Positions 3,076 to 61,460 of a stretch of 64,000 nt of DNA are shown here, piece after piece (the stretch's first letter is position 1; each line of letters starts with the position of its first letter). The notes below the pieces were generated by a model that had not been told where the DNA came from, searched no databases, and worked only from the letters and a program-made list of their open reading frames with translations. Source of the DNA: a virus. The position numbers and the translations under genes are program-made. Location: IMG/VR virus record IMGVR_UViG_3300008267_000054, positions 1 to 64,000 of that record; one strand, 5' to 3'.

Positions 3076-3192
3076 ATGAGCAAGACATCAAACAAACAAA
3101 AGTACGAGTGCCTCGTTCCTTGGCTGGAATGGTTCAAGAAGCAGTATGGTTACAAGAAGCACGTAAAACCACGTAAGACATTTCAGAACTAA
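3076..3192 (+). CDS. Small basic protein, 38 aa (MSKTSNKQKYECLVPWLEWFKKQY...), not in ORF track
   Basis: Translated by hand; TAATG overlap with uvdE start. Confidence 0.55.
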   Translation: MSKTSNKQKYECLVPWLEWFKKQYGYKKHVKPRKTFQN

Positions 3193-4127
3193 TGAATAAT
3201 ATTGGTTACGCTTGCATCAACATGACGTTGGCAGAGAGTAAGATCACAACTGGTCGTACTTGTAGATGGGCTACATTTCAGAAAGAGGGATTTGCACACG
3301 CTTCTAAACTAGCATTGCAAAACTGCAAAGACTTAATTACCATTCTAGAGTGGAATGAGAAAATGGGAATCAAATTCTTTCGGGTAGGTTCAGAACTATT
3401 ACCATGGGGTAATAAGGTAGACATTACGCAGTACCCCGACTTCCACGAAATATGTGATGTACTAAAGCAGGCTGGTTCGGTTGCTAAAAGATCAAACCAA
3501 CGACTAACATTTCATCCTGGTCCATTCAACTTACTAGCCTCTCCAAAAAAAGAGGTAGTTGAAAACACCATTAAAGATTTAGAAATGCACTCGTTGATAT
3601 TTGACTTAATGGGACTAGATCAAACTAGGTATAATAAGATAAACATACACATTGGTGCAACATATGGTGATAAACAAAAAGCAGCAGACACTTGGGTTAG
3701 CAATATCAAACTACTCAGCAAATCTGCACTTAGTAGGTTAACAGTAGAGAATGATGATAAAGCGAGTATGTTCTCAGTTAAAGATCTTTTTCACATGGTG
3801 TTTTTACGCACTGGAGTTCCTATTGTATTTGATATTCATCATCATCGTTTTAATGATGGAGGGTTATCTGAACGCGAGGCCTTAAGCCTTGCAATGAGTA
3901 CTTGGGGTGACATTGTTCCAGTAGTACATTACTCAGAATCTAAGTCTATACACGAAGAGAATAGTAAGATTAGACCACAAGCTCATAGTGACTATATTCA
4001 TGGGCCAATCAATACTTATGGTAAGATAGTTGATGTAATGGTTGAGGCAAAAGCCAAAGAACTTGCCATATTAAAATACCTGCAAAATGAAAAAGCTAGT
4101 TTACTTGTCGATAGTGTTGCTATTTAG
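3192..4127 (+). CDS. uvsE: UV damage repair endonuclease (UvdE/UvsE)
   Basis: IGYACIN, FFRVGS, RLTFHPG, INIHIG, RLTVENDD, PIVFDIHHH, HYSES, AHSDY, MVEAKAKE motifs. Confidence 0.95.
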   Translation: MNNIGYACINMTLAESKITTGRTCRWATFQKEGFAHASKLALQNCKDLITILEWNEKMGIKFFRVGSELLPWGNKVDITQYPDFHEICDVLKQAGSVAKRSNQRLTFHPGPFNLLASPKKEVVENTIKDLEMHSLIFDLMGLDQTRYNKINIHIGATYGDKQKAADTWVSNIKLLSKSALSRLTVENDDKASMFSVKDLFHMVFLRTGVPIVFDIHHHRFNDGGLSEREALSLAMSTWGDIVPVVHYSESKSIHEENSKIRPQAHSDYIHGPINTYGKIVDVMVEAKAKELAILKYLQNEKASLLVDSVAI

Positions 4128-4323
4128 TAGCTGCATTGCAACAGTTGATTTACCAAATGATGACATTTATATTTACAGACCTACACCTCCGGTAAGATGG
4201 TATAATGGATACTATTATCAGTATTATAATCCTGGTGTGCCTCATCACTACACACCACATTACTATCATCCAAGACCACGACCATATCACAACGGACCTC
4301 GTCCACCTAGACCAAGAAGATAA
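4087..4323 (+). CDS. Pro/Tyr-rich lipoprotein
   Basis: Signal peptide with lipobox LFSSC; Pro/Arg/His-rich tail. Confidence 0.7.
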   Translation: MKKLVYLSIVLLFSSCIATVDLPNDDIYIYRPTPPVRWYNGYYYQYYNPGVPHHYTPHYYHPRPRPYHNGPRPPRPRR

Positions 4324-5028: not shown

Positions 5029-5322
5029 ATGAACAGACTACACGTTAAATTTATTAAATGGGTAGCCAATAAATTTGGTTACAAAATTGCAATGGTTAAA
5101 GCACTAAATGGAACAACATCCTTCGAAGGTGATAATGAACTATTAAGATATACCGACTTATCAGGTTATCTTTTTAAGAAAGAACCTCTATCTCGTATTC
5201 AACCAAGTAAAGCACCTACATCAGCCAAGGAAATGTTTTTAGCTGAGCCTAAACCCGATGTAAGTAAGATACCACCAATTACAAAATTAACACCTGAACA
5301 ATTAAAAGAAATTGGGTTATGA
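5029..5322 (+). CDS. Hypothetical protein
   Basis: ATGA overlap with thyA. Confidence 0.7.
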   Translation: MNRLHVKFIKWVANKFGYKIAMVKALNGTTSFEGDNELLRYTDLSGYLFKKEPLSRIQPSKAPTSAKEMFLAEPKPDVSKIPPITKLTPEQLKEIGL

Positions 5323-6467
5323 ACAACATAGATAAAGATTATTTAAGTCTTTGTGAAGACATTTTACATACCGGAGTACAAAAGAATACTCGTAATGGTA
5401 AAGTTATAAGTGTATTTGGAAGACAGATCCGTCATAAAATGAGTGATGGATTTCCTTTATTAACAACCAAAAAAATGGCATGGAAACAAATTGTAACAGA
5501 GTTACTTTGGTTTTTAAGAGGTGATACCAACATTAAGTTTCTTTTAGATAACGATTGTCATATTTGGGATGGGGATGCTTATAAGAACTATTTTATCGAA
5601 AAAAGTAAAGAAAGAGGTCCTTTTGGTGTTAGTGGTTTAATTTTACCACAAGAAGAATTCATCAACAAAATCAAAACAGATGATGAGTTTGCTAAGACGT
5701 GGGGTGAATTAGGGTCGATTTATGGTAAGCAATGGAGAAATTGGAAGCAATTCATACCCTATGATGTGACAGAAGAAAATTGTAAAGTTGCAGTTCAAGT
5801 AACAGACCAAATCGCAAACCTAATCAACGACCTTAAAACAAATCCAGACTCAAGACGATTAATGGTTTCAGCTTGGAATGTAGGTGAATTGGATCAAATG
5901 GTACTTCCACCTTGTCATTATGGATTTCAAGTTTATACAAGAGAGTTGAGTTCTGAAGAAGTAGCATTTGAAGCAAATAAACGAGGATTTAACCTTGAAG
6001 GAATGACAATTAGTGGTAAATTGATAATCAACCCTAAAGAAGTTAAAGAACATAACCTACCAACCAGAGCAATCTCTTTAATGTGGAATCAACGAAGTGT
6101 AGATGTTCCATTAGGTTTACCATTCAACATTGCTTCGTATGGTTTATTACTTCATATATTAGCAGAAGCAACAAACATGATACCAGATGAATTGATTGGT
6201 AATTTAGGTGATTGCCACATTTATGAAAATCAAATTGATGGTATTAAAGAACAATTAACGAGAGAGTCATTTGAGTTACCTTCGCTAAATATTAACACAG
6301 AGTTTTGGCCTACTGAAAATGGTTCTTGTGGTGAAGGTCCGTTAGATGCAATTGCAGTGTTTAATGCATTTAAAGATGAAAACTTCTGCAAATGTTTATT
6401 GAATGAAGATATTCAGTTAGGCAATTACAAGTATCATCCAGCAATTAAAATGCCTTTATCAAACTAA
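5319..6467 (+). CDS. thyA: Thymidylate synthase with loop insertions
   Basis: FPLLTTKK, ELLWFLRG, YGKQWR, SRRLMVSAWN, LPPCH, QRSVD..LGLPFNIASY, GDCHIYENQ. Confidence 0.97.
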   Translation: MNNIDKDYLSLCEDILHTGVQKNTRNGKVISVFGRQIRHKMSDGFPLLTTKKMAWKQIVTELLWFLRGDTNIKFLLDNDCHIWDGDAYKNYFIEKSKERGPFGVSGLILPQEEFINKIKTDDEFAKTWGELGSIYGKQWRNWKQFIPYDVTEENCKVAVQVTDQIANLINDLKTNPDSRRLMVSAWNVGELDQMVLPPCHYGFQVYTRELSSEEVAFEANKRGFNLEGMTISGKLIINPKEVKEHNLPTRAISLMWNQRSVDVPLGLPFNIASYGLLLHILAEATNMIPDELIGNLGDCHIYENQIDGIKEQLTRESFELPSLNINTEFWPTENGSCGEGPLDAIAVFNAFKDENFCKCLLNEDIQLGNYKYHPAIKMPLSN

Positions 6468-6703
6468 TGAAAACTCGTATACACGTTAACCAACACAACA
6501 TTAGATCCAACAAGACTAAAGGAACTGAATTACCAGTCATTACAATTAAACAGGGTAAGAAGAACACTTATTGTAATGAGGTAGAAATCCTTGGGCCAAG
6601 TAAAATAGTATACGGTGGTGCTGGGTGTGATACAAAAGCCCTGCTTAGTTGTGGTGCTCGAGTTGTTATTGAAACTGAGGCGGAAGTTAAGATTATAAGT
6701 TAA
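6467..6703 (+). CDS. Hypothetical phage protein
   Basis: TAATG coupling; IHVNQHNIR...LLSCGARVVIET. Confidence 0.75.
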   Translation: MKTRIHVNQHNIRSNKTKGTELPVITIKQGKKNTYCNEVEILGPSKIVYGGAGCDTKALLSCGARVVIETEAEVKIIS

Positions 6704-6718
6704 CCTATTTATATTTAC

Positions 6719-6991
6719 ATGAGGAAATATATTTTATTATTTGCAATACTAATTGGTTTAGCTTCGTGTGAAGTTGATACCTACGATTGTTACACTTTTG
6801 AAGTGCGTACAGAGTTCACATATATTCCGTACAGACCAACACAGGTCACGTATTACGATTATGATCGATGTGGTTTATCCTACTACACTGCACAGCAGGA
6901 AGCTAGATCCAACGAATACATATACAGTTACTACAGCGGTGGTTATTATGTAACAGAATACACAACTTGTAATTTTTGGAGGTCCTGGTAA
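6719..6991 (+). CDS. Tyr/Cys-rich lipoprotein
   Basis: Lipobox GLASC; TATTTATA at 6706-6713. Confidence 0.75.
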   Translation: MRKYILLFAILIGLASCEVDTYDCYTFEVRTEFTYIPYRPTQVTYYDYDRCGLSYYTAQQEARSNEYIYSYYSGGYYVTEYTTCNFWRSW

Positions 6992-7053
6992 TTCAAATTT
7001 ACCGCTTTTGGTTTGATATTTATTAGTAGCGTTACTAATCAAAACCAAAAACC

Positions 7054-8241
7054 ATGAAGAAATTAATTGCACTCTTATCACTAACAATCACGACATTGTT
7101 TGTGAATGCGCAGGATCTAACATTTGATTCTGTTGCTACTATCTCTCCCTACTGGGGATTAAAATTTGAATCCGGTACATCCGGAGATCCGTGGATGAAC
7201 TGCGGACAAACTAATACCAACTTTCAAACAGGTCAACCTTATTTGCTTGCTCGCTTTCCGATCAGATTAGCAAATATGGGAACCAATGTTGCTTACTTTG
7301 GTACGTATGGAGTAACACCTGGTATTACTCATGATTCTTGTTACAATAATCAGTTTACTCAAGCTACTGATTATATTAACATTCCCAACTTTGTATTAGC
7401 TACTATCACGGATTCGTGTGGTAATGTTGTTGGCAGCTCTAGAAAAACGGATTGGAATATTCAAAACAATTCTGTTTTTGTAATGGATAAGTACAATGGA
7501 CAGTGGACCTATCTCACAAATTATTTTGGTACACAACCAACTACTGGTAATGCCGCTAACCCAACCAAAGATTGGTTAGAATCTATTTGTGGTCCACTAG
7601 ACACAACTTTAGCAGTTATAGGCAAAGCACAGATGAACACCTACTACAATAACTGTTTAGTGTGTGACAGCTTAGTGTTATTTCCAAACTATGCATCAGA
7701 TGATTATAGTGTTATTCAATTACCAACAAACTTAGGACCTGGACACTACAAGCTAGTTCTTGCAGGTAATTTTAGCCCGTATGAAACAACTAATTGTTAT
7801 CCAAACACATTAACCGTTCCTTTTTATTGGGATGGTTCTGTTGGTAGTAGCCCAACTTATCCGTACTTTGCTAATGGTGTAACTTACGGTGCTAATACAG
7901 CTTGTGTGCAAGTTCCACCAAATACTCCTACTAACGTTGCATCACAGTTAAATAATGGCATTGTATTGGTAACTTGGACATATCCATCCTACCCACAGAA
8001 TGTAACTGGATTTGAGATTACGCCTATATTTGTTCAAGGTAATACGGAACGTAGTTTAATTAACAGAGCTAAATTTTCTACAAACATTAGCGTTGTATTT
8101 GATGCAGCTCAACTGCGTAATGATGCAATTGCATTAGGTGCTGGTAACGGACCAGCCAAATACAAATTTGCTGTTAAAGCTATTAATGGATCTGTGACTT
8201 CTGTAGAAGTTAAGACTAGGCAAGCTTTGAATGTAAAGTAA
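7054..8241 (+). CDS. Secreted protein with degenerate lysyl-oxidase-like domain and C-terminal FN3 domain
   Basis: Sec signal (..VNA/QD); LLARFPIRLANMGT and LGPGHYKLVLAGN resemble the LOX fold; PPNTPTNV...VTW...YKFAVKAIN is FN3-like. Confidence 0.6.
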   Translation: MKKLIALLSLTITTLFVNAQDLTFDSVATISPYWGLKFESGTSGDPWMNCGQTNTNFQTGQPYLLARFPIRLANMGTNVAYFGTYGVTPGITHDSCYNNQFTQATDYINIPNFVLATITDSCGNVVGSSRKTDWNIQNNSVFVMDKYNGQWTYLTNYFGTQPTTGNAANPTKDWLESICGPLDTTLAVIGKAQMNTYYNNCLVCDSLVLFPNYASDDYSVIQLPTNLGPGHYKLVLAGNFSPYETTNCYPNTLTVPFYWDGSVGSSPTYPYFANGVTYGANTACVQVPPNTPTNVASQLNNGIVLVTWTYPSYPQNVTGFEITPIFVQGNTERSLINRAKFSTNISVVFDAAQLRNDAIALGAGNGPAKYKFAVKAINGSVTSVEVKTRQALNVK

Positions 8242-8262
8242 TATAAACCTTAAAGTAACGCT

Positions 8263-8287
8263 AAATAGCCCATTTTATGGGCTATTT
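8263..8287. terminator. Hairpin, possible bidirectional terminator
   Basis: AAATAGCCCAT-ttt-ATGGGCTATTT. Confidence 0.65.
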
Positions 8288-8301
8288 CTATATTTATTAA
8301 T

Positions 8302-8997
8302 ATGATAAAATGGTGCAATTATGAGTGGCTTACACAAGAAAGGTGGGGTCAAATCCATCCTGAGAAGAGTTTTTGTTGGTATGATCCATCCTGTGTTGAG
8401 GTGGATCAATCTGGACTTTTACATTTAAGAACTAAGTTTAATCCAAAGTATTTTGAACACATTAAAACTACTTCTACGGTAGGGATTGGACTAGTATCTT
8501 GTACAACAAAGTTCCGTCACGGTATATTTGAGATAGAGGCTAAGTTGCCGGTTGGAGAAGATCTTTGGCCTGCATTTTGGATGTACAGCTTTGATTCATG
8601 GCCACCTGAAATTGATGTCATTGAAGCCTACACTGTTAAAAGAGGTACCTATCTTAGTCCAAGCATATTTCCGTTAAGTTTGTGGGATGTTAAAACCAAC
8701 CTACATTATGGACTTGATCCTGATCGTAAAAGTATAAGAGCTAAAAAACACTTTTGGGGATGGAAAAATCCAGCTCATCACTTTATAAAGTATAGATTAG
8801 AGTGGCGTCCTGACTGTATTAAATGGTATTACAACGACTATCTTGTTAGATCCATAGTAGATCCTAAAATACTAGCTGAGTTTAATAAAACTACTCTAAA
8901 TGTGATTATAAACAATGGAGTTGATTACACTGTAAATCAACTAGTACCTCCTAAATCAGATTTTGTTATTAGTTCCTTTACATACAAATCCATCTAA
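8302..8997 (+). CDS. Glycoside hydrolase family 16 (beta-glucanase-like), no signal peptide
   Basis: LWPAFWM...WPPEIDVIE catalytic motif; HGIFEIEAKLP; YRLEWRPD. Confidence 0.9.
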   Translation: MIKWCNYEWLTQERWGQIHPEKSFCWYDPSCVEVDQSGLLHLRTKFNPKYFEHIKTTSTVGIGLVSCTTKFRHGIFEIEAKLPVGEDLWPAFWMYSFDSWPPEIDVIEAYTVKRGTYLSPSIFPLSLWDVKTNLHYGLDPDRKSIRAKKHFWGWKNPAHHFIKYRLEWRPDCIKWYYNDYLVRSIVDPKILAEFNKTTLNVIINNGVDYTVNQLVPPKSDFVISSFTYKSI

Positions 8998-10005
8998 GTA
9001 CTTTTTCCAAACAGCTTTGCTGGTTTTTCCATAGTACCATAGGCTGAGTTTATTTATAAACTGGATATTTAGATTTGACGTTTTTAATGCAAAGTTCATT
9101 TTTTCCATAATGCTCTTTGAGTCAGTTGGTTTTGCTTTGTACAAATATGACATCCACTCTATTTGATCCGATACAACAATTGGTACATTACAATCCACAA
9201 AGTCTGCAGCAACAATGTTAAAGGTTTCTGTAAAAGAGACTTGTAGACCAACATCCATTGTACTTATGAGCTTTTTAAAGTCGCTGTGAGATAACCAACC
9301 GTGTTGAACTAATTCGTGTTTTGGATTATTAAGAAACAAATTACGAATGTTTTTTAGTACTGAATCTCCTTTATTTTCTACACGTGCTTGATTAATGTGA
9401 AATCTCAGCTTTTTATTTACAGCATTGGCATACTCAATAGCTGCAGTTGCTTGATATAGTTGGTTTTTTAGTGGTCGTACTGCTCCAAAACATCCAACAT
9501 TTATTACATCCTTTTCTACCTTTTTGTAGTTTGTGTTTGTGAAATCTACTGGGTAGTAGTTTGGTAAATACACAACTTTATTTGGTAGCAGTGCATTCAA
9601 ATCATTGTATGTAGTTTCAGAATTTATTGAGATGCAAACGTTCTTGTATTTTTGGTACTCATATATCCACTCCATTGCAATGCCTTCATTTGCAATGAAA
9701 GGTATTTCCGAATGCAGTCTAATTATCCATGTAACATTTGGATGTAGTTTTTGTAAAACATCAAACTTAGATGGAACAACCCAAAGAGCTTCAATTATAA
9801 CGACATCTGGTTTTACTTTTGTTACTTCTTTGTCAATATCGTTGTTATCTTTGACTTCAACTAAAGTAGAGTCATAGCCTTCGGCTAATAACATTTTGTG
9901 TACAAATCCAGCAGAGTTTAATAATCCAGATGATATTGTATGTAGTCCTGTGTGGGAGCTCATTCTCTTTTTCAATATAAAGAGAATCTTTGGGCAGCGT
10001 TTCAT
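8956..10005 (-). CDS. Glycosyltransferase, GT-B fold (GT4-like)
   Basis: RLHSE, FGAVRPLKN, QVSFTETFNIVAAD...VPIVVS; own TATTTATA on - strand (10030-10037). Confidence 0.88.
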   Translation of the reverse strand: MKRCPKILFILKKRMSSHTGLHTISSGLLNSAGFVHKMLLAEGYDSTLVEVKDNNDIDKEVTKVKPDVVIIEALWVVPSKFDVLQKLHPNVTWIIRLHSEIPFIANEGIAMEWIYEYQKYKNVCISINSETTYNDLNALLPNKVVYLPNYYPVDFTNTNYKKVEKDVINVGCFGAVRPLKNQLYQATAAIEYANAVNKKLRFHINQARVENKGDSVLKNIRNLFLNNPKHELVQHGWLSHSDFKKLISTMDVGLQVSFTETFNIVAADFVDCNVPIVVSDQIEWMSYLYKAKPTDSKSIMEKMNFALKTSNLNIQFINKLSLWYYGKTSKAVWKKYLDGFVCKGTNNKI

Positions 10006-10029
10006 GTTTTTGGTAATTACGGGTTCAAT

Positions 10030-10037
10030 TATAAATA
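10030..10037 (-). promoter_or_regulatory. Late promoter motif TATTTATA on the - strand, upstream of the glycosyltransferase
   Basis: Reads TATAAATA on +; 24 nt upstream of the only - strand gene; paired with a + copy at 10084-10091. Confidence 0.7.
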
Positions 10038-10112
10038 GGATAATTTACAAACAATAAGTAGATGTTTACATTAAAAAATACACTATTTATATAAAATTAA
10101 AGCTTTTTTAAT

Positions 10113-10655
10113 ATGAAGTATGTTATTATGATTGTAGCAATGCTACTATCAATTAATACCTTCGCCCAGGTAGAATTATTAGGAACAGCGGATGGGCAGG
10201 TTAGTAGGCTAACTGACAATATTCTGTATGACATAGTACAGACTGATCAGTATGGTAAGGTTTTAGCTACAATAGAACCTAAAGAGACTAGCTTTTTTAT
10301 ATACTCTGATTCTCTTTATTCACTACTGAGCATTACACAAATCTATAATGGTTGCATAACTAGCAACGCTGGTGATTATGATTACTGGTTAGTCGAGCGT
10401 ACAAGCAATGTAGATCCTTTAGTCTACCCAAATCCTACTACAGGACAGTTATTTGTAGCTCTTAATGTGTTGAGTGAGGACTTATTTGTATCAATTTACG
10501 ATATACAACTAAGACAAATGGTATCGCAGAAATTAACAGATTTTATTAGCACTGTGAACATAAGTAGCTTATCGGAAGGTACGTATCTTCTTGATATAAG
10601 AAATAAAAATCAAACTTTTAAAACAACAAAAATATGTTTAGTAAAAAACAAATAG
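10113..10655 (+). CDS. Small secreted protein with T9SS type A C-terminal sorting domain
   Basis: Sec signal (..TFA/QV); LVYPNPTTG...IYDIQ...VNISSLSEGTYLLDI...TTKICLVK. Confidence 0.85.
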   Translation: MKYVIMIVAMLLSINTFAQVELLGTADGQVSRLTDNILYDIVQTDQYGKVLATIEPKETSFFIYSDSLYSLLSITQIYNGCITSNAGDYDYWLVERTSNVDPLVYPNPTTGQLFVALNVLSEDLFVSIYDIQLRQMVSQKLTDFISTVNISSLSEGTYLLDIRNKNQTFKTTKICLVKNK

Positions 10656-11935
10656 TAACAATGTTGCTATTGCTAGTAAGCACATTAGTACTTGGTCAAA
10701 GACAAATTAACTGGTATCGAGTAACAGCAGATACAACTATGTTAAATTATAACCCATTCAGTACTCCAAGTAATCTCAACACCATTAAAATGGGATACTA
10801 CAACATAAATCCACTCAACGGGGAAGAGTATCGTTATCAGGGTAATAACATTTGGGTAAGGGATAGTTTGTTTAGCGGGACAACAACTCAAGCTTCTTCA
10901 ATAGGTGGTGTGACATGGGTACAAACATGGACACAATTCACAAATGCACTATCAAATCCCAATATAAGATCTATTAACTTAGCTGCTAATTTAACAGCAA
11001 CTACAAAAGCTTATATCCCACTGAGTCAAGCATCAACCAATCAAAATTCTGGTATAAAGGAGATCGATGGTCATGGTTTTGAAATTAATATACCATCATC
11101 AATAGACACAGGTATTGTACGTAGATATAGCTCATTAGGCGAAGCTAATTTTGGAATTGATCAACAGCTAAGAATTAAAAATGTTGTGTTTAAAGGTAGT
11201 AACAATATTGGTCTTTATATATCAGCTAATTACGGTATGAAAATAGAAGGATGTAGATTCTACAATTTTAGTACTGCATTGGATTTGAGATGGTGTATGG
11301 GTACTATAATTGACCAGTGTTACTTTTGGGAAAACTATATTGGTGTAAATTTAGATTATGATAGATTTGCTGGTGGATCCAATTCTACATCACAATCAAA
11401 CCACTCCATAGTTCAAAATTGTAAATTTAGAAACTCTGCAGGTGACTTTGCAAACATAAGAGTGTATGCTGCTTCTGGGGTTCAGATTCTCCATAATATA
11501 TTTGAAGGTGTTCAAGCGGGCGGTGACTATGATGTTTATTTTGATGATAATGGTTCTACGGTTGTTAAAGAAGTAACCATGTATGGTAATCATGTTGAAC
11601 ATCAACCAGCTATTGCAGCTTTCTATATTAGATTAAAAGATGGCTTTGCAAAATGTGGAGGAATTTATTCACAATATGATTGCACTTTAATTAAGTTTGA
11701 ATCTGCTGCGTATGCTAAATGCATGGTTGATAACATACCTTATTTAACTTCCGGTACTAAATTTCATTATATTGGTAGTGGTTGTAGATGGTGGTTTACA
11801 AACATGCCAGTTGCTTTTGATCCTAATATAACAACCTATTGGGTTGGTGGTGTCGCTCCAACTAATTCACGCTATGATGGTTGGAACTCCAATGGACAAT
11901 CTCCATTTTTACAGCTAGGAACAAGAAGGCCTTAA
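10634..11935 (+). CDS. Secreted right-handed beta-helix (pectin-lyase-like) protein
   Basis: Signal peptide; repeats IEGCRF, IDQCYF, VQNCKF, ILHNIFE, MYGNHVE. Confidence 0.75.
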   Translation: MFSKKQIVTMLLLLVSTLVLGQRQINWYRVTADTTMLNYNPFSTPSNLNTIKMGYYNINPLNGEEYRYQGNNIWVRDSLFSGTTTQASSIGGVTWVQTWTQFTNALSNPNIRSINLAANLTATTKAYIPLSQASTNQNSGIKEIDGHGFEINIPSSIDTGIVRRYSSLGEANFGIDQQLRIKNVVFKGSNNIGLYISANYGMKIEGCRFYNFSTALDLRWCMGTIIDQCYFWENYIGVNLDYDRFAGGSNSTSQSNHSIVQNCKFRNSAGDFANIRVYAASGVQILHNIFEGVQAGGDYDVYFDDNGSTVVKEVTMYGNHVEHQPAIAAFYIRLKDGFAKCGGIYSQYDCTLIKFESAAYAKCMVDNIPYLTSGTKFHYIGSGCRWWFTNMPVAFDPNITTYWVGGVAPTNSRYDGWNSNGQSPFLQLGTRRP

Positions 11936-12016
11936 TTCTGTAAATAGTATGAACTAGTTGGTGAAGGTTCATCTGATGGCTTACTATAAACCTACTTATA
12001 ATAAAAGGAGGGCACA

Positions 12017-13045
12017 ATGTTTTTACGTGTATTACCATTGCTATTCGTTTTTATTTTAGGTATTAGTTGTCTGAAAGAAAATGATGTTTATCCAACAGCA
12101 GCAGATTATCTTAATGTAAAAGAGAGGGATTTAATGGATCCTGGACCAGATCCCATTCTTCGATTAGATTCGTCTAGTGTTATACCCAATGCAATTACAA
12201 CATCTTGGGAAAGGTTTATGTATGTTGACAAAACAGACACACTATATACCAGTACTCAAGGTAAAAACACACTCTCCAAGTATCTTAAAAAGTATGGATT
12301 TACTGGTGTTTATTTTTATAGCACATCATCTATTTTATCATCCAGTAGTAAGTATGCAAACTTTGGCTTGTTTTTAAAACAATTAAATGATAGCGGTGTT
12401 ATTTTTAAAGCAGTTGCTAAGGGTAGTGCTAGCTCTTTTGGTAGTACTGGTGATATAACTAAATACAATAGTTCACAGTCTGATCCTACTCGTAAAATAA
12501 ACAGAGCTAACTTAGAACTTGAATGGTGGAATGGTGCTACTAGTTGGAGTAGTTGGAATAGTATTAATCAACAAATAGCTTCTGGGTCTATTAGAGATAA
12601 TGATTTTTATGAAGGTTGGTATAAAAATTTAGGAACAACAATCGACACTATTGCCGCAAGAGACCAGGTTAGATACTCAGACAGAATTTTATTACATTGT
12701 TATCAAAATGGGATTCCTACTTATTCTTATGCTAATGCTAAAAGTACCGGTGCCACCGGTGGCCGATTGGATATTATTGCCAAAGGTGCACGCCAGGCTA
12801 ATAAACGAATTGATGTCTATATCATCATATCTGCTGAGTACACAGCCTGGGGAGCTAGCAATACTTTTACAGGTCCTGCTTTAGCAGCTGCTTCGAATCA
12901 ACCAAATCCATTTTTTTACATTGAACAGCAGGCTTACAGTAACATTTATAATGGTATGACTGACTTTCAGAAACAATGGATTGACTTGAAAGGGTTTGTT
13001 TGGTTTACTAAAAGATATTGTTATAGCGCAGTACCACCTCAGTAG
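12017..13045 (+). CDS. Lipoprotein, possible TIM-barrel glycoside hydrolase-like
   Basis: Lipobox LGISC; GFTGVYFY, NLELEWW, DRILLHCY, KGFVWF pattern; AGGAGG at 12006-12011. Confidence 0.6.
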   Translation: MFLRVLPLLFVFILGISCLKENDVYPTAADYLNVKERDLMDPGPDPILRLDSSSVIPNAITTSWERFMYVDKTDTLYTSTQGKNTLSKYLKKYGFTGVYFYSTSSILSSSSKYANFGLFLKQLNDSGVIFKAVAKGSASSFGSTGDITKYNSSQSDPTRKINRANLELEWWNGATSWSSWNSINQQIASGSIRDNDFYEGWYKNLGTTIDTIAARDQVRYSDRILLHCYQNGIPTYSYANAKSTGATGGRLDIIAKGARQANKRIDVYIIISAEYTAWGASNTFTGPALAAASNQPNPFFYIEQQAYSNIYNGMTDFQKQWIDLKGFVWFTKRYCYSAVPPQ

Positions 13046-13072
13046 TAGATATTTATAGGAAATTTACTTCTT

Positions 13073-14080
13073 ATGAAATCCCTTATTATTGCACTGTTGT
13101 TACTATTTGTAACACCTTGCATAGCACAAACACAATTGTATTTAGACAACATGGAGTGTCTTGGTTATACATGGAGGGGTATACCAAAGTCTTTAGTTAA
13201 CTCCGGTTATATTGGTGGCCAATCCAACGCAACCGATCTACCATCTTCTTGCAATCTATTTGCTTCATCAGATAGCTCCTTTAGATTAGTTGGGAATGGT
13301 TTAGGTAGTTCCTCAGTAGAAAGAGATACGCTTGTATATAGTTTAGTGAACATTAATCCAGCTTTTCAACATGAGCTAAGACTGAGAGTTGCTTCTGTAT
13401 CAATATCGCCATCGCTAAATTTAGCGGCCGGTGCAGATGGTACTGATTATATTGAGATAAACTATACATTGAATGGGGTCAACTATATAAGAGAGCTAAA
13501 ACTATCAGGCATATCTAATAGTAACTGGGATTACACTAATGGTGCTGCTATTACCAAAACGACTAATGGATTTTTAAATACATTTGTAGGACCTGCATCT
13601 CGAGTTAGTTTAATGCTTCCAGCCGGTATATCACAGATTGGTTTTCAAATTATTATGGCTACAAATGCAACCGGAGAATCTTGGTTAGTTGATGATGTTG
13701 AATTAATTGAGGGTTGCTATTGTCCACTACCAATATCACTACTTGAATTTAAAGGTAAGCAAGTTGGTAATAAAATAAAATTAGAATGGACAACTTTGAC
13801 AGAAACAAGTAACGACTACTTCTCTATTTTGGAATCACCGCATAATCTAGAATATTGGTATTTAATTGATAATGTTGATGGTGCTGGTAATAGTAATCAG
13901 CAACTTAGCTATACCTTTATTGATCCAAATCCTAAAAATGGTATTAACTATTATGTACTAACACAAACAGATTATGATGGTACAAGAACACAGTTTGGCC
14001 CGATTGCTGTTCAGTTTACTGGTATACCTGTTCTTAATATATGGGATATGTACAATCTGCTAGGTCAACAAATAAAGTAG
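13073..14080 (+). CDS. Secreted T9SS-cargo-like protein with truncated C-terminal sorting domain
   Basis: Signal peptide; PLPISLLEFKG...LEWTTLTETSNDYF...YYVLTQTDYDG module typical of Bacteroidota T9SS cargo; ends at YNLLGQQIK. Confidence 0.8.
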   Translation: MKSLIIALLLLFVTPCIAQTQLYLDNMECLGYTWRGIPKSLVNSGYIGGQSNATDLPSSCNLFASSDSSFRLVGNGLGSSSVERDTLVYSLVNINPAFQHELRLRVASVSISPSLNLAAGADGTDYIEINYTLNGVNYIRELKLSGISNSNWDYTNGAAITKTTNGFLNTFVGPASRVSLMLPAGISQIGFQIIMATNATGESWLVDDVELIEGCYCPLPISLLEFKGKQVGNKIKLEWTTLTETSNDYFSILESPHNLEYWYLIDNVDGAGNSNQQLSYTFIDPNPKNGINYYVLTQTDYDGTRTQFGPIAVQFTGIPVLNIWDMYNLLGQQIK

Positions 14081-14102
14081 ATATTTATAATAAAGTTTAC
14101 AT

Positions 14103-14576
14103 ATGACAATGTTATCACAGCATTTAAGTCTAGCAGAAGTTACAAAATCAAACACTGCAAAAAGGCTTGGTATAGAAAATCTACCAACAGAAAAGCATTT
14201 AGAAAATCTTAAGCAGTTAGCGGTTAATATTTTTGAACCAATCAGAGTCCACTTTGGTAAACCTATTTACATATCATCCGGATACCGCTCTAAGGAATTG
14301 AATGCAGCAGTACCAAACTCTTCTAGAACATCACAGCACTGTATTGGTGAAGCATTAGACTTGGATCAAGATGGGTTTAATAGCATCATAACTAATGTAA
14401 TGATATTTAATTACATTAAAGATAATTTACTTTTCGATCAATTAATATGGGAATATGGTACCAATAACAACCCTGATTGGGTTCATGTATCATACAAAGC
14501 CTCTGGCCAGCAAAGAAAGCAAATTAAAAAAGCTACCAGAGTAAATGGAAGACCTAGCTATAAACCTTGGAAATAG
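14103..14576 (+). CDS. Peptidase M15A, probable endolysin
   Basis: ISSGYRS..LN, SQHCIGEALD, WVHVSY zinc-binding motifs. Confidence 0.9.
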   Translation: MTMLSQHLSLAEVTKSNTAKRLGIENLPTEKHLENLKQLAVNIFEPIRVHFGKPIYISSGYRSKELNAAVPNSSRTSQHCIGEALDLDQDGFNSIITNVMIFNYIKDNLLFDQLIWEYGTNNNPDWVHVSYKASGQQRKQIKKATRVNGRPSYKPWK

Positions 14577-14602
14577 GGTTTGAATTATCAAAAAAATTTA
14601 GT

Positions 14603-14773
14603 ATGTTTAAGAATACAAAAAAGCTACAACAATACTACGATGAACAAGAACTCGGAGCTGATGGTTCTATCTACCTCTCAGACAAAGACCGGAAAGCGCT
14701 TAAAAGTAAAGCGAAAAAAGAGGTCAAAAGAGGTGGCAATAAAAGAGTTCGTCGTAATGAATCAGAATGGTGA
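14603..14773 (+). CDS. Hypothetical basic protein
   Basis: ATG at 14603 in the tracked frame; start uncertain. Confidence 0.45.
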   Translation: MFKNTKKLQQYYDEQELGADGSIYLSDKDRKALKSKAKKEVKRGGNKRVRRNESEW

Positions 14774-14912
14774 GTTCTTTTCTGGCTTTGAGCGTGGTAA
14801 GTTTAAATGGTCTCCTTTTGTAACTGAGGCAAAACCTTTAGAGAGAGTGGAACAATTTGAGACCATTAAGAGGCTAGAACCAACAATGGATCTCATATAT
14901 GATTACACATAA
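14733..14912 (+). CDS. Hypothetical protein
   Basis: Likely GTG start at 14733 within ORF 14580-14912. Confidence 0.55.
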   Translation: MAIKEFVVMNQNGEFFSGFERGKFKWSPFVTEAKPLERVEQFETIKRLEPTMDLIYDYT

Positions 14913-15402
14913 TACACTCTATTCTAAAAGCGACATTGAGACAAAAGCTAAGCTTTGTGCTCAATTTATTGATGATATTGCATTTAAAAATGACACGTTA
15001 CTGTGTCCAATAATGCAATCAAGCTATCAATTTATTGCCGAACTAAGTAAGCATTTATCAACCACACCCTATCTTGATTTCTATGGCATATCCAGGTATG
15101 CTGAAGATAACACAGAAGATGAACTATACCTATACAAAGGTGCTGAGCAATCTTTATTAAACAATAGGACTGTTATAGTAATTGACACACTATGTTCTAC
15201 TGGCACTACTATGGATCTAGCAGCTAGGTTATCTAAACAATTGGGTGCAAAAAGAGTATACACAGTAAGCTTGTTACAAAGACAATTTTCCGTTCACAAA
15301 CCTAGCTGGTATGGGTGGATGATATCGGATGAATCTGTTTATGGATATGGTATGGACACTAAAACTAAATACAGAACATTACCTTATATTGCACATGAGT
15401 AA
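14899..15402 (+). CDS. Hypoxanthine phosphoribosyltransferase-like protein with divergent PRPP loop
   Basis: VIVIDTLCSTGTT PRPP loop; VYGYGMD..KYRTLPYI C-terminal HPRT motif. Confidence 0.8.
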   Translation: MITHNTLYSKSDIETKAKLCAQFIDDIAFKNDTLLCPIMQSSYQFIAELSKHLSTTPYLDFYGISRYAEDNTEDELYLYKGAEQSLLNNRTVIVIDTLCSTGTTMDLAARLSKQLGAKRVYTVSLLQRQFSVHKPSWYGWMISDESVYGYGMDTKTKYRTLPYIAHE

Positions 15403-59639: not shown

Positions 59640-61460
59640 ATGGCCGAAAACAATTTATTTAACAGGCTTAAAAAATTATTTAGCACTGACGTAATCATTA
59701 GAAACGTTGGTGGTAATCAGTTAAAGGTTATTGATACCGATAGAATTCAATCGGCGGGTAATATTGAAACTAATAGACGTGTCGATAGATGGTCTAGAGT
59801 ATATCAACATACCCCAGGATTAAGTTACTATCAAGGACAGTTACTACACAGTTCACGTATAGAATTGTTTCGTGATTACGAAGCCATGGATACGGACAGT
59901 ATTATAGCCAGCGCATTAGATATATACGCAGATGAATGTACATCGAGAGATGAGTTTGGAGACGTATTAACAATCAGAACGCAAAACGAAAGAGTTTACA
60001 AAGTTTTGCGTAATCTATTTTATGATGTGCTTAACATTGAGTTCAATATGTGGCCGTGGACTCGCAATATGCTAAAGTATGGTGATTTTTATCTACACCT
60101 AAATATAGCAGATAAGTTTGGGGTAATTGGTGTTGATCCAATATCAGCTTACGAGATTATTAGAGATGAAATGTTTGATCCTGAGAATCCACACAGAGTG
60201 AGATTTAAAAGAGACGTTTCAGCTATTAGTGGCTATGCTACTATCAACCAAAATGGTGAAGAGTATGATAACTATGAAATAGCACACTTTCGTTTATTAA
60301 CTGATACCAATTTCTTACCATATGGTCGATCTATAATTGAACCTTCTAGAAAAGTTTGGAAACAGATTGTACTGATGGAAGATGCGATGTTGATTCATCG
60401 TATTATGAGAGCTCCAGATAAGAGAGTTTTTAAAATTGATATTGGTAATATCCCACCAAATGAAGTAGATGCGTTTATGGAACTTACCATAAACAAAATG
60501 AAAAAGGTTCCATACATGGATCCCGAAACTGGTCAATACAATTTGAAGTTTAACATGCAGAACATGATGGAAGACTTTTACTTACCGGTTCGTGGTGGTG
60601 AAAGCGGTACAACTATCGACAATCTGACCGGTTTAAATTTTGATAGCATTCAAGATATTGAATACCTAAAGAATAGGTTGTTAGGTTCCTTAAAAATACC
60701 AAAAGCATATTTGGGATATGAAGAGGATACAAGTGGTAAAGCAACGTTAGCATCTCAAGATTTTAGATTTGCTAGAACTATCGAGAGAGTGCAGCGTATT
60801 ATGGTGTCTGAACTATATAAGATAGCTGTAATTCACTTATACGCACAAGGATTTAAGGATGATGAGGTTGTAGATTTTGAGTTGAGCTTTACGGCACCAT
60901 CTACAGTATATGAAAAGGAGAAGGTTGAATTGTGGACCAGTAAAATGACATTGGCTGGTGACATGATGGACAAAAAGCTCTTTAGCAAAGAGTGGATATA
61001 TGAAAACCTATTTAATCTATCACCTGAGCAGTATGCTAAGGAAATGGAAAAGATGGTTGTGGATAGTAAAGAATTCTTCCGTCTCGAGCAAATTAAAAAC
61101 GAAGGTAATGACCCAGTAAAAACAGGTCAATCCTTTGGAACAGCACATGATCTTGCATCCTTATATAAGGGTAATGGAGGTATACCAAAAGGCTATGATG
61201 AAAGAGAGCCTGCACCTGATGGTGGATGGCCAGGAGCTGGTCGACCAGAAGAACCCGGATCATATGGTACACACCAACATCCACTTGGATGGGATCCACT
61301 TGGCTCAAAAGCAATAAGAAAAGTTTATGAGAGAGCAGATGCTATGACAGCTGCTGGCAGACTAAAAGACTTCAAAAGTAAGGCTGTAAAGCAAACTATA
61401 TTGGAGCAAAAAAGTACGCAAGAAGGTATGTTGGACGAATCTGGACTATTAGATGAATAA
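59640..61460 (+). CDS. Portal protein (T4 gp20-like)
   Basis: MEDAMLIHRIMRAPDKRVFKIDIGN, EDFYLPVRGG..GT.I..L.G, SLKIPKAYL. Confidence 0.96.
   Translation: MAENNLFNRLKKLFSTDVIIRNVGGNQLKVIDTDRIQSAGNIETNRRVDRWSRVYQHTPGLSYYQGQLLHSSRIELFRDYEAMDTDSIIASALDIYADECTSRDEFGDVLTIRTQNERVYKVLRNLFYDVLNIEFNMWPWTRNMLKYGDFYLHLNIADKFGVIGVDPISAYEIIRDEMFDPENPHRVRFKRDVSAISGYATINQNGEEYDNYEIAHFRLLTDTNFLPYGRSIIEPSRKVWKQIVLMEDAMLIHRIMRAPDKRVFKIDIGNIPPNEVDAFMELTINKMKKVPYMDPETGQYNLKFNMQNMMEDFYLPVRGGESGTTIDNLTGLNFDSIQDIEYLKNRLLGSLKIPKAYLGYEEDTSGKATLASQDFRFARTIERVQRIMVSELYKIAVIHLYAQGFKDDEVVDFELSFTAPSTVYEKEKVELWTSKMTLAGDMMDKKLFSKEWIYENLFNLSPEQYAKEMEKMVVDSKEFFRLEQIKNEGNDPVKTGQSFGTAHDLASLYKGNGGIPKGYDEREPAPDGGWPGAGRPEEPGSYGTHQHPLGWDPLGSKAIRKVYERADAMTAAGRLKDFKSKAVKQTILEQKSTQEGMLDESGLLDE

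Follow-up and report, generated by a model that had tools for sequence, protein, structure and literature searches.

A putative envelope- and glycan-remodelling gene block combining several Bacteroidota-type export signals in a probable T4-like phage

Close to the thymidylate synthase gene of the virus record IMGVR_UViG_3300008267_000054 (IMG/VR; 116,439 bases, linear, CheckV completeness estimate 67%), whose bases 1-64000 form the 64,000-nucleotide window analysed here, eight open reading frames (ORFs), O1 to O8, occupy positions 6719-14080 and are followed by an endolysin gene, as laid out in a preliminary description of this DNA. That description took them for a secretome island run by the host type IX secretion system (T9SS). 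We read the block, with middling confidence, as a late, Sec-fed envelope and glycan-remodelling module, in which the T9SS would receive a single product. The export signals, the domains, the ownership by the phage, the conservation and the placement of an upstream motif, on which this reading is built, are all observed.

6719..6991, plus strand: O1, a Tyr/Cys-rich lipoprotein of 90 residues with the lipobox LASC and acidic residues after the Cys
7054..8241, plus strand: O2, a protein with a Sec signal (cleavage VNA/Q)
8302..8997, plus strand: O3, a GH16 glycoside hydrolase lacking a signal peptide (PF00722, residues 56-202, 52.7 bits against a cut-off of 22)
8956..10005, minus strand: O4, a candidate glycosyltransferase of GT-B/GT4-like type, presumably cytoplasmic, the block's single gene on that strand
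10113..10655, plus strand: O5, 180 residues made up of a Sec signal (cleavage FA/Q), an N-domain of ~80 residues (SDYDYWLV) and a complete T9SS type A C-terminal domain (CTD)
10634..11935, plus strand: O6, with a Sec signal, a conserved N-domain of ~60 residues (WYR..LNYNPF) and a right-handed beta-helix, lacking a CTD
12017..13045, plus strand: O7, a lipoprotein with a C-L-K-E-N-D motif resembling a surface-export signal and a (beta/alpha)8 barrel like that of glycoside hydrolases (GH)
13073..14080, plus strand: O8, with a Sec signal, a MAM-like jelly roll, an Ig-like PLP...QTDYDG pre-CTD module and a CTD stump of ~18 residues
14103..14576, plus strand: endolysin (peptidase M15), bordering the block on the right (PF08291, 55.9 bits against a cut-off of 23.2; phrog_894, E = 8.8e-35)

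Sec or lipoprotein signals had been assigned to six of the eight genes, and the same six (O1, O2, O5, O6, O7 and O8) were recovered by a rule-based screen of 127 greedily chosen ORFs of the whole 116-kb record, which used a rule of our own (a basic n-region, an uncharged hydrophobic h-region and an optional lipobox) instead of SignalP. The rule flagged nine ORFs, six of them in the block and three among the 119 outside it (Fisher p = 4e-7); O3 and O4 carry no export signal. The lipobox of O7 reads GISC. In O2, O5, O6 and O8 the predicted cleavage exposes a Gln, and at the level of families a small residue followed by Gln closes the hydrophobic region in all 32 O6-family proteins of the signal-bearing form, in 51 of 53 O8-family proteins and in 24 of 26 O5-family proteins. 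A Gln directly after the signal-peptidase cleavage site is described as the Q-rule of Bacteroidota (PMC5837995), and its occurrence in these four proteins lends independent support both to a Bacteroidota host and to real processing by signal peptidase.

A T9SS signal proper was found in one of the six exported proteins. The CTD of O5 (residues 104-174) scores 46.9 bits with PF18962 (cut-off 27) and 43.6 bits with TIGR04183 (cut-off 23), which confirms the type A domain noted earlier in this protein by the hidden Markov model meant for it. In a six-frame search of the 116-kb record O5 provided the single PF18962 match (48.6 bits), and the T9SS type B domain TIGR04131 gave none at E <= 0.1. O5-like PF18962 matches are present in four of five related phage records, one of which holds a second match, while a complete related record of 169 kb that carries an O8-family gene has no PF18962 match. 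The sorting tag in this clade thus looks essentially confined to the small O5 family, of which ~25 full-length cluster representatives of ~180 residues were collected among 647 matches, with the signal, the N-domain ending in SDYDYWLV and the CTD all conserved; in IMG/VR the single O5 sequence found no locus and the family alignment six. The second match just mentioned lies in G001, the 222-kb record of locus L183 (40115-40345, minus strand, 40 bits), at the end of an open frame of 817 residues, and would represent a large CTD protein besides the O5-like one.

O8 had been regarded as T9SS cargo from its PLP...QTDYDG module, and in cells this association holds. The module has at least 577 tblastn-confirmed matches in the GTDB genome collection; when the best 80 of these were translated through to the stop codon, 76 had PF18962 directly behind the module, and 79 of the 80 record titles name recognisable Bacteroidota taxa. 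O8 itself, on the other hand, matches neither PF18962 nor TIGR04183 at E <= 0.1, nor in the six-frame search, and gave no match in Pfam, NCBIfam or PHROG; its AlphaFold model (pLDDT 80) consists of a jelly roll and an Ig-like domain, with the MAM-Ig module 2c9a as the top PDB match. The phage side of the family was assembled from IMG/VR, where the module has 150 tblastn-confirmed matches (best 80 loci kept, 77 analysed). Among 53 phage gene products, drawn from 79 cluster members after near-duplicates and a few badly called starts had been dropped, PF18962 is present in three, as against 76 of the best 80 cellular matches, so that the CTD has been systematically cut down in the phage family; MAM N-domains are likewise present in three of the 53.

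The lengths of the tails after the YY.L.Q.D motif agree with this picture. They measure ~85-109 residues in 75 of the best 80 cellular matches and 53-62 in four (in one further match, L100, the motif was not found and the tail was excluded), whereas among 64 distinct phage proteins they measure 48-62 residues in 56, 35-36 in five, the type found in the window (35 residues in O8), and 97-102 in three. An hhalign comparison of the phage-tail profile with the cellular module plus CTD (probability 96%, E = 2e-9) shows the YPNP block, in the longer phage tails, and a middle block to be deleted. The intact seven-strand CTD sandwich is reported to be essential for secretion (PMC11285876), and with its mere stump O8 is therefore held to be Sec-exported but an unlikely T9SS substrate. 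It is probably a descendant of T9SS cargo that has lost most of its CTD and stays in the periplasm or envelope.

The same data bear on the view that the whole island depends on the T9SS and that most of its exported members cross the outer membrane by this system. The CTD of O5 is bona fide, the module of O8 is a hallmark of cellular cargo (in 76 of the best 80 matches), and co-export is conceivable given that O5 and O6 overlap and that O6 follows O5 in all assessable relatives. Yet the record holds one PF18962 match and no TIGR04131 match, O2, O6 and O7 lack a CTD-like C-terminus, the CTD of O8 is reduced to a stump without the YPNP block, and the complete 169-kb relative with an O8-family gene does without PF18962 altogether. 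We therefore consider a T9SS-run island improbable, and retain O5 from the T9SS cargo originally proposed.

Several variants of the O8 family deserve mention. Four of the best 80 cellular matches (L141, L146, L149 and L150, all GTDB metagenome-assembled genome contigs) lack the full CTD and have a short tail of the phage type (..LGQEV..Y.DGS..), and phage or prophage DNA that ended up in cellular bins is a possible source of them. A minimal O8-type protein of 148-173 residues, in which a poly-Asp/Asn or Gly-Asn linker joins the signal to the PLP module with its stump, is encoded at 8789-9310 of L045 and also in L042-L044; in L045 it lies directly upstream of a 203-residue ORF that reads like a lysozyme/GH19-like endolysin. 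Among 50,697 deposited phages, O8 is matched through its module only, at 37-42% identity over ~90 residues, in four uncultured huge-phage records of 462-642 kb (LR756500, LR745206, LR756504 and LR756502). The genomic neighbours of the family vary and include phrog_138, an AAA-type ATPase with a vWA-like protein (porphyrin/cobalamin biosynthesis PHROGs) and an RNA ligase. In one lineage (L004, L005, L008, L013, L018-L020, L038, L039 and others) the O8-family gene adjoins the major head protein gene (phrog_138, E = 1.2e-65), an odd site for a Sec-exported protein.

The lipoprotein O7 had been described as a possible GH; the lipobox and the GH-like barrel support this, but its route to the surface does not appear to be the T9SS. 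The family has 99 homologues (41-78% identity), unnamed and belonging to no Pfam family, and its alignment found fifteen viral loci. When 60 of the 99 were aligned, all 60 proved to have the lipobox Cys; a Lys stands at +2/+3 in 55, and Lys with at least two acidic residues occurs in 46. This arrangement matches the lipoprotein export signal (LES) of Bacteroidota, K-(D/E)2, which is reported to send lipoproteins to the cell surface (PMC5080379), and it points to a surface-lipoprotein route instead of the T9SS. By their N-terminal residues O7, and possibly O1, look like surface lipoproteins that use this signal. The AF2 model of O7 is a (beta/alpha)8 barrel (pLDDT 89.9), for which the VIA wide structural search returned 48 glycoside hydrolases or GH-fold homologues (beta-Klotho, Klotho, IDGF-2) among the top 50 entries (Z 12.3-14.4); the other two were the cell-wall hydrolase Cwp19, which was the top entry, and an F420-dependent reductase. 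The matches also include a Pseudomonas aeruginosa glycosyl hydrolase (4zn2), GH1, GH18 and GH20 enzymes and the PgaB hydrolase domain. Foldseek gave only weak generic TIM-barrel matches (TM ~0.4), and a profile search of PDB sequences nothing usable. Strand beta4 ends in Glu167 and Glu169, both invariant in the family, and Glu274 (conserved in at least 90%) comes just after the strand read as beta7; Glu residues after beta4 and beta7 are, we presume, the arrangement of clan GH-A.

O6, the beta-helix protein, scores 44.3 bits with PF20585 (Pectate_lyase_5; cut-off 24.3) and 40.3 bits with PF13229 (Beta_helix; cut-off 25.9). A PDB sequence search gave nothing usable for it, and the leads from an Atlas search were all generic beta-helices, with named clusters staying below 0.9. 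Of the six loci that the O5 alignment retrieved, five can be assessed (the sixth is cut at a contig end), and in all five the O5-like gene has an O6-like gene directly behind it, with an overlap of 13-28 nt in the three loci with listed ORFs. The family has 156 homologues. Of 15 that were read, four share with the window protein the signal and the WYR..LNYNPF N-domain, seven are signal-free and carry a collagen-like stalk reminiscent of tail fibres, three combine a signal or membrane anchor with collagen, and one is N-terminally short. To go by these architectures, the helix domain appears to have moved between exported and probably virion-bound contexts.

The collagen-stalked relatives mean that a structural rival has to be reckoned with for the family as a whole. 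This does not extend to the signal-bearing form, in which all 32 members retain the signal followed by Gln. According to the rival, some of the products would be virion parts, with O6 acting as a depolymerase in a tailspike or fibre and O8 as an adhesin or an Ig-like decoration of the capsid; their hydrophobic N-termini would either be no export signals or belong to proteins that join the particle after lysis. The location of the O8-family gene beside phrog_138 in one lineage, the upstream motif shared with head genes (see below) and the MAM-Ig module as top fold match would suit such a role. The conservation of a signal and Gln in the O6 form and in 51 of 53 O8-family proteins argues, however, for real cleavage by signal peptidase I, and exported proteins would be absent from the cytoplasm, where heads and tails are assembled. 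Moreover, the structural block of this phage starts beyond ~26 kb, far from the O6 and O8 genes, and no tail-protein match was obtained among the 50,697 deposited phages. A virion role for these products is, in our judgement, distinctly improbable.

The assignment of the block to late expression derives from a TATTTAT-type motif, which the preliminary description had counted before seven of the eight genes. Exact copies stand before six, 4-30 nt upstream of O1, O2, O3, O5 and O8 on the plus strand and of O4 on the minus strand, and likewise before the endolysin gene; O7 has the one-base variant TACTTATAA ~15 nt upstream of its start, and no copy precedes O6, the first 22 nt of which still belong to O5.

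6706..6713, 7017, 8291, 10084, 13050 and 14082, plus strand, and 10030-10037, minus strand: copies of TATTTAT(A), with TATTTATA at 6706 before O1 and at 14082 before the endolysin gene

Over the window, TATTTATA occurs 21 times as against 13.2 +/- 3.2 expected, a modest excess, with 19 of the 21 copies on the plus strand. The whole record has 46 forward and 10 reverse copies of TATTTAT, and 30 of the 46 forward copies fall within 35 nt upstream of a plus-strand start, positions that make up 3.6% of the record. The motif also lies 4-14 nt upstream of the portal gene (59640-61460; phrog_213, E = 1.3e-61) and of the gene for the head maturation (prohead) protease (63042; phrog_207). Being common to these two genes and strongly biased as to position and strand, it fits a late-type promoter; we take it to resemble T4 TATAAATA. 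Thus the block is indeed preceded by the motif of the portal and prohead protease genes, and it sits just before the endolysin gene.

The block is a conserved accessory module of the phage, shuffled versions of which occur beside thyA in related viral contigs. Related phages, too, have this gene as a conserved anchor on the left of the module; it is found within a few kb of homologues of O5, O6, O7 or O8 in four loci of our search (L045, L097, L181 and L183). In L045, thyA is accompanied by the minimal O8-type gene, the 203-residue ORF (which has no tblastn match to the window endolysin), an O5 homologue and an O6 homologue (76% identity). L097 contains a lipoprotein gene, thyA, homologues of O7 (78%) and O4 (52%), an O5-like gene and a beta-helix protein well conserved relative to O6 only in its N-terminal 13%, followed by ORFs that read like MazG and DNA polymerase genes. 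L181 has the O8-type module, O5, O6 (71%) and a phosphoribosyltransferase gene, and L183, on the 222-kb record, an O8-like gene, thyA, and O5-like, O6-like, GH16-like and O2-like (61%) genes. Among the 50,697 deposited phages no match was found to the DNA of 6000-15000, nor to the proteins O5, O6 and O7.

The immediate neighbours on the left side are as follows.

3192-4127: UvdE
5319..6467, plus strand: thymidylate synthase (thyA) with an insertion (PF00303, E = 4.9e-88)
6467..6703, plus strand: a small phage protein of unassigned function (phrog_8676, E = 1.5e-20)

The thymidylate synthase, at 382 residues against a profile of 266 positions, carries insertions (its relatives have 331, 379 and 418 residues), and at 5578-6067 the aligned contigs show many skips of 60-120 bases and a very high summed depth, probably from thyA genes of other organisms. 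Overlapping the end of UvdE, ~2.4 kb upstream of the block, a lipoprotein-like ORF of 78 residues (4087-4323, lipobox FSSC) is one of the three ORFs flagged outside the block by the signal screen, and its signal is the only convincing one among them. Three tRNA genes (Met-CAT, Glu-TTC and Leu-TAG) form a cluster within 934-1600, near the contig start.

An origin of the block as a fragment of a host chromosome, joined to a phage contig by mis-assembly, was considered with these data at hand; CTDs, glycoside hydrolases and lipoproteins are typical of Bacteroidota chromosomes, and the block lies near a contig end. Contigs from other runs span both junctions, on the left at 6347-6936 (X2, no differences) and 6474-7514 (X4, from another study, 36 differences) and on the right at 13901-14495 (X1), and the depth inside the block is as low as that of its flanks, so that contig coverage speaks against a host fragment. 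GC content is flat over block and flanks (0.33-0.36), phage genes stand on both sides, the phage-wide motif precedes seven of the eight genes if the variant is included, and homologous sets occur beside thyA in at least four other viral contigs. Taken together, the bridged junctions, the flat GC content, the flanking phage genes and the related loci lead us to reject this origin, to which we assign a very small probability.

The carrier is most likely a large T4-like phage and its host most likely a freshwater member of Flavobacteriia. Identity of the portal protein to its counterpart in Flavobacterium phage vB_FspM_immuto (160 kb) amounts to 51% over the full length, and thousands of T4-type portals are matched less closely. 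The stretch recurs in freshwater metagenomes: contigs from four runs in three studies were aligned to it, further runs from other studies are indexed as containing it, and none of the runs listed is recorded as RNA. The portal of Microcystis phage Mel-JY01 is 54% identical over 92% of the length, above the full-length match of the immuto group; for so close a relative in this protein, Microcystis is a surprising host label.

A glycan theme runs through the block (GH16, beta-helix, glycosyltransferase-like protein, MAM-like domain), and the GH16 protein, the beta-helix protein and the M15 endolysin of the preliminary description are all present. The translation of O3 reads WPPEIDVIEAY, where EIDVIE fits E-x-D-x-x-E, which we take to be the catalytic motif of GH16; O3 homologues occur in L012 (52%) and L183 (32%). 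O4 gave sub-threshold matches only (PF13692, 19.1 bits against a cut-off of 27, E = 0.0016; PF00534; phrog_2170, E = 0.0011) and has homologues of 50-52% identity in L091 and L097. O2 matches nothing in Pfam, NCBIfam or PHROG, and searches of IMG/VR and of PDB sequences gave, respectively, nothing and nothing usable; a lysyl-oxidase-like N-terminal fold and an Fn3-like C-terminal fold are possible (an Atlas lead only, TM 0.63, from a model of low confidence, pLDDT 0.63), and its homologue in the 222-kb phage locus is the one of 61% identity given above. The LPAM_1 match of O1 is weak (15.9 bits).

With such domains the genes could also be auxiliary metabolic genes, by which the host would secrete extra polysaccharide-degrading enzymes so that external glycans fuel replication. 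The domains do resemble enzymes of polysaccharide utilisation, the habitat is freshwater, and additional enzymatic capabilities were suggested for the cargo of another phage, the Cryophage (Bellas et al.; PMC7468147). Against such a role, the block contains no SusC/SusD-like uptake genes, its GH16 enzyme has no signal and could not act outside before lysis, a late-type motif would leave little time for a nutritional return, and O5 and O8 have no catalytic domains. We regard this explanation as unlikely.

A role in lysis, with spanin-like or outer-membrane-disrupting accessories acting beside the endolysin, is suggested by the position of the block. It abuts the endolysin gene, an M15 endolysin gene follows an O8 homologue in L002 and L003, and the minimal O8-type gene of L045 lies upstream of what reads like a different endolysin; O1 is a small lipoprotein, and the ORF list shows no holin or spanin beside the endolysin gene. 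In most of the 77 analysed loci, however, the O8 family is not beside an endolysin gene, O1 has no paired inner-membrane partner, and large enzymes are not typical spanins. We would thus call a lysis function quite improbable.

In the reading that we prefer, the module would be transcribed together with the structural genes, and three host routes would load the envelope of the infected cell with proteins that bind or cut glycans. Sec and signal peptidase I would deliver O2, O5, O6 and O8 to the periplasm; signal peptidase II and an export signal of the K-(D/E) type would place O7, and perhaps O1, on the cell surface; and only O5, with its intact type A CTD, would be passed on to the T9SS. O3 and O4 would remain in the cytoplasm until lysis, when the GH16 enzyme would be released. 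The host's own surface polysaccharide would in this way be cut or altered late in infection, so that progeny could leave the capsule or matrix, and progeny and rival phages alike would adsorb less to doomed cells and debris. The timing of expression, the actual export, the substrates and the benefit are elements that we infer; capsule or biofilm escape, receptor masking and exclusion are plausible functions.

Several points weigh against this reading. The late timing is drawn from a motif common to two head genes, the host is deduced from relatives and habitat, and the signals were called by a home-made rule instead of a trained predictor. The surroundings are nucleotide-metabolism genes (UvdE, ThyA, phosphoribosyltransferase) and not a lysis cassette in which a holin or spanin can be recognised. 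O4 falls below the Pfam cut-offs, and the top VIA entries of O7 are tied within ~2 Z units, so that no GH family can be named for it. Finally, the signal-free O6 homologues with tail-fibre-like stalks (seven of the 15 read) would suit virion roles, and so would the vicinity of the major head protein gene, found at most three genes away from the O8-family gene in 16 of the 77 loci and adjoining it in eight.

A different use of the same export routes can be imagined, in which a clade of large Flavobacteriia phages would have domesticated T9SS cargo in two ways. O5 could be a minimal CTD carrier of 180 residues, translationally coupled to O6, which it would ferry through the T9SS or tether to the cell surface, and the widespread O8 family could be a periplasmic decoy that occupies or blocks T9SS or gliding components; as these serve as phage receptors, receptor display on infected cells would be shut down. 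We think this unlikely. T9SS and gliding mutants of Flavobacterium are described in the literature as phage resistant.

Phage-encoded T9SS cargo as such is already published (PMC7468147, PMC6949934); it has been noted in metagenomes and is not known to have been dissected or tested. What the present block adds is a phage clade with a recurrent envelope gene set under a late-type motif that combines three export signatures specific to Bacteroidota, the Q-rule Sec signal, the LES and the T9SS CTD. The main interest lies in the CTD-amputated family, in the O5/O6 pair of carrier and enzyme, and in the Pfam-less family of GH-like surface lipoproteins with its 99 homologues. Our searches of the literature on phage T9SS cargo found no truncated-CTD phage family, no O5/O6 pair and no O7 family, within the limit that full-text searches cannot show absence. 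Should the stripping or masking of glycans and receptors prove true, it would bear on how phages leave capsule and biofilm, and on superinfection exclusion among Flavobacteriia, and the module would be a source of new polysaccharide-active enzymes.

The closest published parallel is the 76-kb Cryophage with its three variable CTD genes, for which hijacking of the T9SS, surface modification and superinfection exclusion were proposed (Bellas et al. 2020, PMC7468147). As described there, it resembles the present case in being a metagenomic Bacteroidota phage that combines T9SS type A sorting domains with glycan-active domains among variable accessory genes. The two were compared by description only (Cryophage accession MT820023), and they differ in that the CTD proteins of Cryophage are given as an endoglucanase, a GH39 protein and a PA14 protein, whereas the CTD protein found here is small and non-enzymatic and the enzymes are CTD-free. 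Gut phage cluster 2 (de Jonge et al. 2019, PMC6949934) likewise comprises phage contigs of Bacteroidota hosts with T9SS sorting-domain ORFs, placed beside carbohydrate-binding (BACON) ORFs and upstream of head genes; it represents another lineage and habitat, and the account available to us describes no cluster of signal peptides, no lipoproteins and no truncated CTDs. In phages of Porphyromonas gingivalis, Sec proteins that expose a Gln were read as an adaptation to the secretion system with a potential for outer-membrane modification (Matrishin et al. 2023, PMC10367356). They share with our block the Q-rule Sec signals on phage genes of unknown function, and differ in being temperate phages of an oral anaerobe, for which the part of the report at hand mentions no T9SS CTD and no cluster of glycan enzymes. 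Surface lipoproteins with an LES (Lauber et al. 2016, PMC5080379) are comparable to O7 in the lipobox Cys, the Lys followed by acidic residues and a GH-like body as in Sus-type enzymes; O7 differs in being phage-encoded, in lacking a Pfam family and SusC/D partners, and in that its surface exposure is a prediction.

With cellular T9SS type A cargo, O5 shares the N-terminal Sec signal and the C-terminal CTD of ~70 residues, and O8 the module that precedes the CTD. The phage proteins differ in size: O5 has only 180 residues and a tiny passenger, and 61 of the 64 phage module proteins have tails of 35-62 residues, as against ~85-109 in cells. O6, by its fold class and its pectate-lyase-like Pfam families, presumably belongs with the right-handed beta-helix depolymerases of phages, which we take to include tailspikes as well as free enzymes, and like them it has a conserved N-domain and a more variable helix body. 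It is set apart from the tailspikes by its conserved cleavable Sec signal, which argues for a protein that is exported instead of being built into the virion.

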